DNA of 64,000 nt, taken from Octopus vulgaris (taxonomy: Eukaryota). The stretch lies in contig OX597833.1 of NCBI GenBank assembly GCA_951406725.2, positions 21,080,001 to 21,144,000 on the forward strand, read 5' to 3'. A program made the position numbers and the translations under genes. Under the pieces are notes generated by a model. It ran no database searches, was not told the DNA's origin, and saw nothing but the letters and a program-made list of their open reading frames with translations. Every line of letters begins with the position of its first letter. Positions within the stretch are counted from its first letter, which is position 1. This document shows, one piece after another, positions 15,296 through 44,224 of the stretch.

Positions 15296-15875
15296 TAGAT
15301 ATACTATTAAATTAGTATCTAATTCTCTCACCCTTATTAATTAATTATAATTATGCTACATTTATTTCTAAATGCAGTATTTGTTTTCCGTGAAAGTTTG
15401 GTGCGCTGTTAGTAGGGGCATTTGAATTATAACGTCGGATGTAATCAATTGAACCACACGTGTATTTATCGTTATGGTAAAATCTGGCGTGTGATTGAGT
15501 GGATTTCATCCAGATAGTTTTGGCTGAGGAGCTACAAGTGGATTTTTTTGTAAGTAAAATTACATTTAATTCATTAATAGCGAAACAATTGTCCCAAAAT
15601 AATCTGTATTTTTGTTATTTTTTATTTGCCCTGTCCGTGTGAGCTAACAATCGTACTGACTTTCATGGGAAACATGTATTTTTGTGGTCGAAACCTTTTG
15701 GATTAACTAGTGCTAGAGTGAGCCATATAGTGACCACTCTCTTATATTTATTTTGTAAAAATATTATAATATATTATAAAATATTATAATAATCCAGGTT
15801 TCTCGGAGCACTAGGCCACTTGGTGTTGAATAGATATACTATTAAATTAGTATCTAATTCTCTCACCCTTATTAA

Positions 15876-15884
<9 letters not shown>
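15296..15884 (+). mobile_element. ORF-less hammerhead-bearing element with 54-bp terminal direct repeats (retrozyme/pLTR-like)
   Basis: 15296-15349 equals 15831-15884 (period 535). Ends in (TA)n. A homologous 3' end lies at 17630-17720 (-). Confidence 0.75.
15511..15606 (+). ncRNA. Type I hammerhead ribozyme, canonical core
   Basis: Stem I cagat.GTTTTGG / CCAAAAT.atctg; CTGAGGA 15524-30; stem II GCTA/TAGC; GAAA 15582-85; CAATTG; GUC site, predicted cleavage after 15593. Confidence 0.88.
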
Positions 15885-26468: not shown

Positions 26469-26849
26469 CATACATACATACATACATACATACATACATA
26501 CATGATTGTATACAAAATCATATATATACCGTATGCATATATACCGTGCACACAAACATCACGTTTCACCACTTGAAACAAACGTTGCACATTACACGAT
26601 ATTTAAACCACTCGGCTATTATTCGCTTTATAAACCGTGTATTTATTTCATTGGGACGGTTTATCGTTATGCTATGTAGTTATGAAAAGAAATTGTTTTT
26701 TCCGAGGCATTTACCTTCTTCACAACTACATGTGAATTTGAAACCAGGGAATATGGTTTAATGCTTCCTGTTTATTTTAAATGGGTTATTCAATTACATC
26801 TGCAACACAAAAGCGTCACTGCTCTATCACGCAACTGTCTATCTATCTA

Positions 26850-28335
<1,486 letters not shown>

Positions 28336-29092: not shown

Positions 29093-29220
29093 TAATATAT
29101 ATATATATATAAATTTAAATTTAAAATAATAAGGGTGAATAATAATTGGTAGAACTATATACATGTTCAATCTCATGCGGACGTCTCGTGTATAGTTCTG
29201 CAAATTATATTTGGCTATGA

Positions 29221-29296
29221 TGATCACACTGACGAGTTGCGGACAATTACGTAAATAATTACGTAAGAGGTAACAACGAAATCGGGTTTGTGATTA
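29221..29296 (+). ncRNA. Type I hammerhead ribozyme
   Basis: tgATCACA-CTGACGA-GTTG..CAAC-GAAA-TCGGG-TT-TGTGATta, inside a (TA)n-flanked ORF-less unit 29112-29448. Confidence 0.78.
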
Positions 29297-29453
29297 ATCT
29301 TTATATTTTGTATCTTTTCATTTGTCTTGCTCGCTTACATTCTGGCGTTTGCTAAATTTTCTTGAGAACATTCCTTTCTTAGTGGTAAGACCACAGCGGA
29401 TCTTCTAGCATAATGGATGTCCACTTACAGGTCATCCCTCTTATATGTATGTG

Positions 29454-31524: not shown

Positions 31525-31680
31525 AAACGTATGCTACATACATAAATATATAAACATACATATACACATAAAGACACACGCACACTCATATATGCGTGTG
31601 TATGTGTGTATTTATCTATCAATTTGAATATATATATTTAACAAACCAGGAAGTTGAAAAGCTTATTGGTATTATTTATT

Positions 31681-31779
31681 CCCCATTACACATGTTTCAT
31701 TTACTAATAGGAATTACAAAGTTTTAAAAGGGACATAAACATGTAAGGAATTTCCTAATAGAAAATCTTCAGACAGAGG
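31681..31779 (-). ncRNA. Decayed hammerhead in an inverted-repeat-bounded unit (31644-31876)
   Basis: CUGAAGA, long stem II, U-GAAA-CAUG-UG. G at position 17 and a weak stem I. Confidence 0.55.
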
Positions 31780-31885
31780 TATTGAATAATATTTAATTAT
31801 TTATTTACTTTATTTATTATTGTAAATATTCTTTTCTTTTAAATGAAAGATGTGTAATTTTTCAACTTCTTGCTTATATATATAT

Positions 31886-32463
31886 AATGCTAAAAAAACC
31901 CACCATAAACTCATGATAAAGATACACATGAGTAATGCAATGAGCATATGAGAAATAGACCTACCTTTGCGTTGAATACATCAGTAAGTAAAGTATATTT
32001 CAATATCAATTGATTTCACGCTTAGCATGACAAACATACTGTGCGATCTTCAGTTGAAAATAACTGTAACATCTATTTCTAAAATATTCACTACATTAGC
32101 TCGTGTACTTTCCTTACTTTAAACGTCCCGCTTTGTTTAAAAGAAAACTATCGTGAGCAAGATAAAATTTAGATAAAGAAGTATTACTGTTATCAATAGT
32201 ATTAATGAGGTGGCTAGCAAATGCACACCGTTACAGGCACAATATAAGGTAAATTTAGATTTAATAGAGTATATAATACCATTTGCTAAAATCAGAGTCA
32301 ATGTTCCAAAAACCACCATAAACTCACGATATGATACACACGAGCAATGCAATGAACATATGAGAAATAGACTTACCTTATCTTTATCGTGAGTTTATGG
32401 TGGCTTTTTTGAGCATTGGGTCTGATCTTAGCAAGTGATATATCCTACTGAATCTAAATTTAC

Positions 32464-32470
<7 letters not shown>
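31886..32470 (-). mobile_element. ORF-less hammerhead element with about 80-bp direct repeat and inverted 5' piece
   Basis: 31886-31967 resembles 32300-32379 (period about 413). 32380-32470 is an inverted copy of 32242-32335. (TA)n on both sides. Confidence 0.78.
31998..32059 (-). ncRNA. Type I hammerhead ribozyme (U10.1-U11.1 variant)
   Basis: UUUCAA-CUGAAGA-U-CGC..AGUAUG/CAUGCU..GCG-U-GAAA-UCAAUUGA-UA-UUGAAA. Confidence 0.82.
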
Positions 32471-32505
<35 letters not shown>

Positions 32506-32539
32506 CGTTCAAGTAATACAGTAGTTCGGCTGAGCCCGG

Positions 32540-32918
32540 GTGTGGATGTGTAGTAAGAAGCTCCCCAACCATGTCTCACTGCGTGGAACCTTGGGCAAGT
32601 GTCTTCTACTATAGCCTCGGGCCGACCAAAGCTTTGTGAGTGAGTTTGGTAGACAGAAACTGAAAGAATCCTGTCATCTATGTGTGTGTATGTGTGTGTG
32701 CTTTTGTGTCTGTGTTTGACAAGCGGTGTTTGACAATCGCTTGACAACTGGTGTTGGTGGGTTTGTGCCCTTTTAACTTAGCGGTTCGGCAAAATAGAGC
32801 GATAAAACAAGTACCACTTCCTAAGAAAAGAAGTACTGAGATCGATTCATTCGACTAAAAATTGAAGGTGGTGCCCCAGCATGGCCTCACTCTAGTGACT
32901 GAAACAAGCAAAAGATAA
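32540..32918 (+). mobile_element. CORE-type SINE (OR1-like), diverged
   Basis: ccttgggcaagtgtcttctactatagc block and family tail. Confidence 0.82.
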
Positions 32919-32947: not shown

Positions 32948-32991
<44 letters not shown>

Positions 32992-33515
32992 TATCGTTCA
33001 AGTCACAGTGTAGTTCGGTCGAGCCCTTTCAGTAAGCTTTTCACGCAAATACATTCCCAGGGCATTTGTCGAATACGTATACTCGCGCACACATATTTAT
33101 TACATAAAGAAGAGATATTAAATAAACTTTTACGCTACCATATGCTTGCCAGTGTAAATGTTTTGTACTTACATATGCATGTATAGAAGAATGCAGGCGC
33201 ACATATATGTAAATTTATACATCTGAGCTTTCGTTTGCGCAAATTTATGAGTGGATGCATATTTCCGGTGCGTTAATTCAAGTGTGTTTGCACTTCTGTG
33301 ATATGTAAATCAATGAGAGATTCATCTATCGACAGATTTTATCCATTATTAAGAGATACCAGTACAAAAGAGCTTCTCATTATTAGTTTTGCTGCCTGCC
33401 ATGCTGCAAGATGTGACGTCGAAAGCAGATTGTGTTTCGCTGACCCCAAATATTTTTTCCATTAAAGCTATGAAGCTAAATATCTTTAAGAATTAACTGC
33501 TGGTGGTGGCGGGGA

Positions 33516-43239: not shown

Positions 43240-44224
43240 AAGACGCTCACAGCCCTCTACCCGTCGGGTAATGGGATCGGTGGATGTTCCGCTTTAGAAA
43301 TGTATAGAGGATTAGTGGCGGGGAAGTGCGACGACGTTCTTGGGGAGACTCTGGCACCGACGAGAATGAACTGGATAGCCTGTTCCGGATGATTTTCGGT
43401 TAAGGAACTATCATGGATAATTTCCAAATGTCCTTGGCCTGGCAGTGCTAGAAGGGGGCGGGGCTACAGGTTCGAGATAAACTCTACAGGCACGGATGTG
43501 CTGTCAAGCGGGCTTGTCTGATATGCGCGCAGAATAACGAAACTGTTCTGCACTCCCTTGTTCAGTGTCCGGGCATTGCTGACTTGTGGGGTTATGTCGA
43601 ACAGATGCTGTCACGTGTGGCACGGATCCGTTTGTTGGCCGAGTCTTTAGTGATGATCACCCCGCCACCCTCCTTCAGTCGGGCAGGCAAGGCAGTTTTC
43701 CTTTGCCTGGTGGTTGTGGCGAAAGAGGCTGTTTGGTGGACAAGGTTGAAAGGCATTAGGACAGGTACATTCCTCTTTGGTAGAGCTTTCATTGACTTCT
43801 TCAAGTTTCACTTGAAAACGAAATTGAGGGTAGAGAGGAAAGTGGTGGCCTCAAGTGAGTTTATTGAAAGGTGGGTGAAAGTTGCGAAAATGGCAAGAGT
43901 GGATGGTACTTCTCTAAGTTAGACCTGTGGGTCGGAGAGAAGGAATTGGAGAAGGCACTTGCTCTTGGAGTTTCAGGGAAATCTCGGACAGTGTGTTCCT
44001 CGATTATCCCTAGAGGCTTTCATGCATCAGGAGGGCCACATCTCTATCATCCTCCCCGCCACTTTTTTTAGACCTTTGTATGCTATGCATATTCCCCTTT
44101 TTTTTCAGTGTATACACTTTATTTTCTTTCCTTTTTTTTTAATCATTTCATTAAATATAAACCCGTACGCTTTATATCTTTGTACTGTTTCCCTCATCCT
44201 TCGCCCTTGTGGCAAATAAATAAA
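43240..44224 (+). mobile_element. Diverged Tx1-like LINE 3' fragment ending at (ATC)n/(ATT)n
   Basis: LWGYVEQMLSRV..VWWTRLKG..FFKFHLK homologous to 27043-27753, with stops; tail cccttgtggcaaataaa. Confidence 0.82.

Follow-up and report, generated by a model that had tools for sequence, protein, structure and literature searches.

Penelope-like elements (PLEs) leave recognizable marks where they insert, namely a partial tandem, an inverted 5' arm, a microsatellite target and a hammerhead, together with a short extension or 'tail' at one end only, which measures 30-40 nt in the published cases (cited sections of PMC8557442 and PMC3846280). The protein of an anole PLE cuts both strands of AT-rich DNA in vitro, and its reverse transcriptase (RT) has two internal starts, both downstream of the hammerhead and separated by the stretch that makes up the tail (PMC11167929). 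Non-coding DNA is mobilised in trans by pseudo-LTRs (pLTRs) in a rotifer (PMC8557442 / PMC3846280), and non-autonomous PLEs bearing pLTRs are known in Chlamydomonas (PMC8557442; bioRxiv 10.1101/2022.05.23.493040).

Metazoan non-LTR retrozymes, the second group of closely comparable elements, were described by Cervera and de la Pena in 2020 (PMC7229834) and by Li, Clavereau and Pollet in a 2026 preprint (bioRxiv 10.64898/2026.07.22.740005). They are about 300 bp long with less than 45% GC according to the former, and their units range from 51 to 972 bp according to the latter. Their status as non-autonomous PLE derivatives was proposed in PMC7229834 and argued in the preprint, in whose cited sections PLE mobilisation rests only on co-occurrence and homology; the mover of animal retrozymes is still argued from indirect evidence. 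The same sections of the preprint term a retrozyme 'active' when at least two tandem units each carry a complete hammerhead, report cleavage of only one of nine predicted dimers, and draw on a sampling that contains no mollusc. A repeat annotation of Octopus vulgaris includes 31 Penelope-like families with recent activity, and neither 'hammerhead' nor 'ribozyme' occurs in the cited part of that source (PMC13282606).

Anatomy of the Element

The locus considered here lies in a 64-kb stretch of the O. vulgaris genome that was analysed as a whole and is hereafter called the window. The original prediction described, at 31886-32470, an ORF-less element with a direct repeat of about 80 bp and a period of about 413, an inverted copy of about 90 bp at its 5' side, and (TA)n on both flanks. 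Self-alignment of the window confirms each of these repeats. On the minus strand, the element is composed of (TA)18, an inverted arm (32466-32379), a direct arm of 494 nt (32379-31886) and a 12-nt TA tract. The direct arm consists of one 412-nt non-coding unit (31968-32379, minus strand) and a further 82 nt, that is, 1.2 units with a period of 412-413. The full 82-nt direct repeat consists of a pseudo-LTR-like 3' terminal repeat (31886-31967, minus strand) and a partial copy upstream, truncated at its 5' end and forming the 0.2 of the 1.2 units (32298-32379, minus strand), which agree at 71 of 84 columns; its 73-nt core (31895-31967 versus 32308-32379) is 89% alike (E 3e-23). The inverted arm, 88 nt in length (32379-32466, plus strand), aligns in reverse-complement orientation with 32247-32336, matching at 74 of 93 columns with a single 5-nt gap, and agrees with the 3' repeat copy at 36 of 39 positions; it occupies the right-hand end of the element, which is the 5' side of the hammerhead strand. 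Direct and inverted arms are joined head to head, with 1 common base at 32379.

The direct arm ends at 31886, which is equivalent to 32298 within the unit, and the inverted arm reaches 53 nt beyond this direct 3' end, to the equivalent of 32246. These 53 nt (32246-32298, minus strand), which follow the repeat inside the unit, are present in the inverted arm and missing from the direct 3' end, and constitute a tail on one end only. The ends of the element lie 118 nt (the 3' terminal repeat) and about 170 nt past the predicted hammerhead cut, and both directly abut (TA)n, at 31875-31886 for the 3' end (12 nt) and at 32467-32503 for the end of the inverted arm (37 nt). TA tracts are frequent, with 123 in the window or one per 520 nt; only 1.8% of window positions are within 2 nt of the end of such a tract, and both element ends are among them. 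Because the ends sit inside (TA)n, a target-site duplication is unreadable.

The description of the element as ORF-less also holds. The 412-nt unit (GC 0.32) has a longest stop-free stretch of 85 aa, no stop-free stretch of the element matches Pfam at the cut-off (best E 0.15), and the RT and GIY-YIG endonuclease ORF of an autonomous PLE is absent from it. Self-alignment finds no second copy of the element within the 64-kb window. Two contigs from public sequencing runs bear on the junctions. A 151-nt contig of run X1 has the same sequence as the window and crosses the inversion junction, extending 94 letters to one side and 57 to the other, so this junction is present in a sequencing record, although run X1 may itself be the source of the window's sequence. 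A 95%-identical contig of run X17 crosses the left junction with its 12-nt TA tract (31748-31929), and the insertion is therefore not private to one sequence record.

The Hammerhead Motif

A type I hammerhead motif with a long, interrupted helix II is found on the minus strand at 32058-31999, and includes the 10-nt palindromic helix III, AUCAAUUGAU (32005-32014, minus strand), that the original prediction had pointed out. The motif combines three helices with a CUGAAGA core at 32053-32047, GAAA and an AUA cleavage triplet, helix II being made of 3 pairs, an internal loop and 6 pairs, and the structure descriptor that detects it matched none of 5000 dinucleotide shuffles of the element. Cleavage is predicted after A32004, between 32004 and 32003. 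As a monomer, the hammerhead fold has a predicted probability of 0.0008; the palindrome of helix III could pair with that of a second copy, the predicted duplex between two copies amounting to -9.0 kcal/mol.

Position 10.1-11.1 is occupied by U·U and not by G-C, the G10.1-C11.1 pair being highly conserved in the hammerheads of PMC4209133 (cited sections). Rfam yields no hammerhead match here, either at the gathering score or at E up to 10, and no gathering-score match of any kind in the whole window. Of the 8 weak Rfam matches at E up to 10, the best is MIR828, with 26.8 bits versus 69 required, and this match reflects the inverted arm. Pattern scans for the hammerhead and for a repeat motif returned 0 matches in metagenome, viral and prokaryote collections, and a promoter scan with a bacterial model gave 3 matches versus 3.2 by chance. 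Three points count against activity: the locus has only one hammerhead, this hammerhead carries U·U at 10.1-11.1, and copies have diverged by 8-20%. With 1.2 units and one hammerhead, the locus falls short of the 'active' retrozyme rule and would be at most a monomer-type derivative.

Predicted Fold of the Unit

The minus strand of the 412-nt unit is predicted to fold into a long rod of -101.5 kcal/mol (z -4.4), none of 100 shuffles being as low, versus -77.7 kcal/mol (z -2.4, 3 of 100 shuffles) for the opposite, plus strand. Folded as a circle, the unit keeps a z of -4.2 (0 of 60 shuffles). Four helices with pair probabilities above 0.9 close the hammerhead region, and the strand at 32071-32107 (minus) pairs with 32337-32372 in a long helix at a mean probability of 0.94-0.99. 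Together with the tail and the U·U at 10.1-11.1, this rod goes beyond what the original prediction contained.

When the 23 listed family differences inside the unit are placed on the predicted structure, 13 are unpaired, 4 keep a pair by one-sided change, 2 together make up a single compensatory pair (32221/32282), and the remaining 4 disrupt pairs of lower probability (0.48-0.69). Four broken pairs compare with 7.4 expected at random placement (P 0.048), in a test that is biased by taking the structure from this copy itself and in which the plus-strand control behaves like the minus strand; the chance of the compensatory pair is 0.11. Altogether, these figures point weakly to selection on structure.

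A Multi-Copy Family

At 80% likeness, 4, 1342, 1807 and 1261 contigs of four public runs aligned to 31640-32466, many of them belonging to an unrelated repeat in the left flank; the view on which the following is based covers 28 of 4654 pieces, 40 of 150 differences and 15 of 85 joints. Between 31933 and 32332, the listing gives 27 variant sites, and at 26 of them a letter other than that of the element is carried by 7-62 contigs per run (X2, X5 and X17). Many paralogs of the element thus exist, and it is a member of a multi-copy family. A search of sequencing runs listed no RNA run containing it, an outcome that says nothing about expression. Four of the 24 displayed pieces of these three runs cross the interior of the unit (31962-32252, 32072-32261, 32075-32261 and 32045-32251), each with 21-44 mismatches and no ORF in its span. 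Given this number of mismatches, and the 95% likeness of the ortholog-like contig at the left junction, the four look paralogous, and two of them may represent one orthologous locus. One comes from a contig with a depth of 325, versus 18-38 for the other seven X5 pieces shown. That homologs are always attached to a PLE ORF, which the original prediction had named as evidence against itself, is disfavoured by these four ORF-less crossings, with the reservation that several long contigs extend 197-440 letters past the displayed piece and could lead into an ORF, i.e., into longer coding relatives. All four pieces pass the tail end at 32246 by 6-16 letters, short of the 31-letter bridging rule, under which the stretch of about 32231-32276 is not bridged by any displayed contig.

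Opposite-strand joints at 32040/32331, 32133/32245 and 32255/32322, among the joints listed, suggest inverted arms in other copies. Two of the three begin near the start of the present arm, where the long helix has its foot; a second cDNA may stall there. In the span of the inverted arm, 7 of the 7 family letters listed are those of the arm, and tail and arm are therefore family sequence. At least 3 letters are peculiar to the arm (32410, 32420 and 32427), in keeping with decay after insertion; for this reason, separate templates for the arm and the internal copy, considered in view of the 7 shared letters, were dropped. Contig joints that go back by 396-414 were not counted as proof of tandems, since the two repeats make their mapping ambiguous. 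Neither is an intron claimed from the donor-like AG/GTAAGT at the 5' end of the direct arm and the acceptor-like CAG before helix I, as the family letter at 32066 removes the latter.

Other Features of the Window

The animal DNA of the window is rich in AT and dense in microsatellites, and contains many SINE copies. The left flank of the element includes, at 31666-31780, part of another high-copy repeat family, with more than 100 contigs per run at 31682-31703 and opposite-strand joints of its own. To the right, at about 32573-32918, a SINE copy with many relatives in the window is located between 38-nt, 82%-alike direct repeats (32500-32537 and 32989-33026). LINE remains are found at 8175-6313 (minus), 26686-27753 (plus) and 43452-43922 (plus); they include an RVT_1 fragment (E 1e-26), and two fragments resemble, by eye, LINE C-terminal zinc-binding regions.

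Besides that of the element, the descriptor scan detects two further strict hammerheads in the window. The first, of type I, with an 8-nt palindromic helix III and G10.1-C11.1 (15519-15598, plus), belongs to an unrelated ORF-less partial tandem (15296-15884, plus) with a perfect 54-nt direct repeat (15296-15349 and 15831-15884) and a period of 535. This tandem is directly followed by (TA)n and its unit folds at z -6.7; it looks younger than the element and is a better ribozyme candidate. The presence of two unrelated partial tandems with hammerheads in one 64-kb stretch suggests that such units are common in the genome. The other strict hammerhead, also of type I (29224-29293, plus), lies in a short non-repeated stretch between TA-rich tracts (within about 29100-29440) that is probably a truncated PLE end. 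Hammerhead-like matches obtained with relaxed helix I only, at 59493-59400 and 29747-29694 (both minus), may be due to chance.

A 5'-truncated PLE-like fragment is located 3 kb from the element (36455-35350, minus; ORF 36365-35634), with (TA)n on both sides. Its 243 aa match GIY-YIG at an E of 0.013, below the cut-off, and its 3' part contains a degenerate hammerhead, recognized by eye from a CCGAUGA core, near 35435-35380. As this fragment, the one GIY-YIG fragment found when an autonomous partner was sought in the window, has no significant similarity to the element (best E 0.27), it was rejected as the parent.

Origin of the Element

We consider it probable that the element is a non-autonomous, retrozyme-sized derivative of PLEs with a unit of ~410 nt, that it was inserted in trans by PLE enzymes as one of multiple copies, and that the present copy is aged. 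Its direct repeat, inverted arm and tail match the PLE layout given in the cited sections of PMC8557442 and PMC3846280. The original prediction was right to treat partial tandem and inverted pLTR ends as Penelope hallmarks, and its claim of insertion by Penelope machinery is strengthened by the tail, a further hallmark; the length of this tail, 53 nt versus 30-40 nt in print, counts against such an origin, as do the failure to find an autonomous partner in the window, the missing G10.1-C11.1 pair and the low probability of the monomer hammerhead fold.

What is shown comprises the anatomy, the motif of the hammerhead, the fold as predicted and the many paralogs; from there, the insertion steps may be pictured as follows. 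An autonomous PLE would supply the RT/GIY-YIG protein that binds a transcript longer than one unit, resulting from tandem read-through or copied round a circle, and that cuts the (TA)n tract at the target. One cut end would prime a cDNA 118 nt beyond the hammerhead cut site, copying 494 nt (1.2 units); by analogy with the anole protein (PMC11167929), this first start of reverse transcription would be at 31886. The other cut end would prime 53 nt further downstream and copy 88 nt before halting where the long helix begins, the inverted arm thus representing the second cDNA. Joining of the two cDNAs head to head, over 1 shared base, would account for all three features, direct repeat, inverted arm and one-sided tail. 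Cleavage by the hammerhead would proceed in a dimer formed via its palindromic helix III, or with the help of a protein. Because this copy has a single ribozyme, release of unit-length RNA by double cleavage is impossible, and the copy is probably a dead end. More tentatively, the family could be copied from a rod-shaped circular RNA of ~410 nt, as a retrozyme would be, with insertions that keep the two-start signature of the PLE RT.

Alternatively, the locus could stem from a single event in which two 3' ends of an autonomous PLE, both 5'-truncated, were placed in tandem, with an accidental 412-nt period and no family of mini-elements, an explanation that we find unlikely. It draws on the observations that PLE insertions are mostly 5'-truncated and that most minimal hammerheads are single, probably deriving from truncated PLEs (cited sections of PMC4209133), as well as on the median size of 128 bp of new Chlamys insertions (bioRxiv 10.1101/2022.05.23.493040). 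The fold and the compensatory pair would suit a closed 3'-terminal domain of a long RNA equally well, a GIY-YIG PLE, truncated and with a degenerate hammerhead of its own, is situated 3 kb away, and the tail end is not bridged by 31 letters in the displayed contigs. Nevertheless, a joint specific to this locus at 32246 should be crossed by orthologs only, and four displayed contigs from three runs do cross it, ending at most 6 letters from their own ends. Moreover, the contig counts show no fall toward the 5' side: from 0-17 in the indel-rich 32163-32178, they rise again to 12-29 at 32202-32223.

The least likely reading, which we regard as very improbable, dispenses with PLEs: LINE enzymes or DNA repair would have moved a satellite or SINE-like unit bearing a hammerhead, and the inversion would stem from twin priming or fold-back. 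In LINE twin priming, it is a non-overlapping upstream portion that becomes inverted. The window does contain LINE reverse-transcriptase remains and common TA tracts, and LINEs are named as possible retrozyme helpers in the discussion of PMC7229834, but the arm, unlike the product of twin priming, duplicates the 3' end and adds a tail, a feature described as unique to PLEs (PMC11167929), and no poly(A) end is found at the element.

Significance

Elements of this kind are already in print as non-autonomous PLEs and PLE-derived animal retrozymes, to which the present one adds a tidy member; taken singly, the locus is an ordinary decayed insertion, and its family may already be catalogued in Repbase-type libraries. 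A literature search conducted mostly at title and abstract level found nothing on inverted arms or tails of retrozymes, or on hammerheads in such a genome. What the element offers is an ORF-less unit that carries all the end marks of PLEs, including the tail that is now explained by two internal RT starts. The prediction of two start sites lends itself to a simple genomic test, namely whether or not the 3' ends of the family are piled at two sites. If the family does consist of retrozymes bearing the two-start signature, it would provide a direct mechanistic footprint of PLE mobilisation of animal retrozymes, and would indicate a minimal cis element on which assays of trans-mobilisation could be built, as well as a variant hammerhead able to function with U·U at 10.1-11.1.

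Comparison with Known Systems

Three described systems invite comparison. First, the pseudo-LTR ends of endonuclease-bearing PLEs share with the element the partial tandem, the head-to-head inverted 5' arm, the one-sided tail and the (TA)n target, as well as a hammerhead with palindromic helix III and long helix II situated upstream of the 3' ends (cited sections of PMC4209133). The element differs from them in having no RT or GIY-YIG ORF, in the length of its tail, and in its duplicated part, which stops 36 nt short of the hammerhead cut site. Second, non-autonomous Chlamys PLEs such as MRC1 and Chlamys-N4 are likewise ORF-less, with pLTRs, head-to-tail copies and microsatellite targets (cited sections of PMC8557442 and bioRxiv 10.1101/2022.05.23.493040); in contrast to the element, they reside in a green alga, target (C)n or (CA)n, belong to a clade that mostly lacks a hammerhead, and have known autonomous partners, whereas none is known for the element.

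Finally, metazoan non-LTR retrozymes, as presented in the cited sections of PMC7229834 and bioRxiv 10.64898/2026.07.22.740005, resemble the element in being few-hundred-nt, non-coding, low-GC units with a type I hammerhead, repeated head to tail, dispersed in many copies and proposed to be non-autonomous PLE derivatives. At 412 nt and 32% GC, the unit falls within the published sizes of animal retrozymes, in agreement with the original prediction that it would be near their range. The element differs from retrozymes by its PLE-type hammerhead with U·U at 10.1-11.1, and by the inverted arm and tail, which are not described for retrozymes in those sections. In the way it works, the element is like a PLE insertion; in appearance, it is like a monomer-type animal non-LTR retrozyme.
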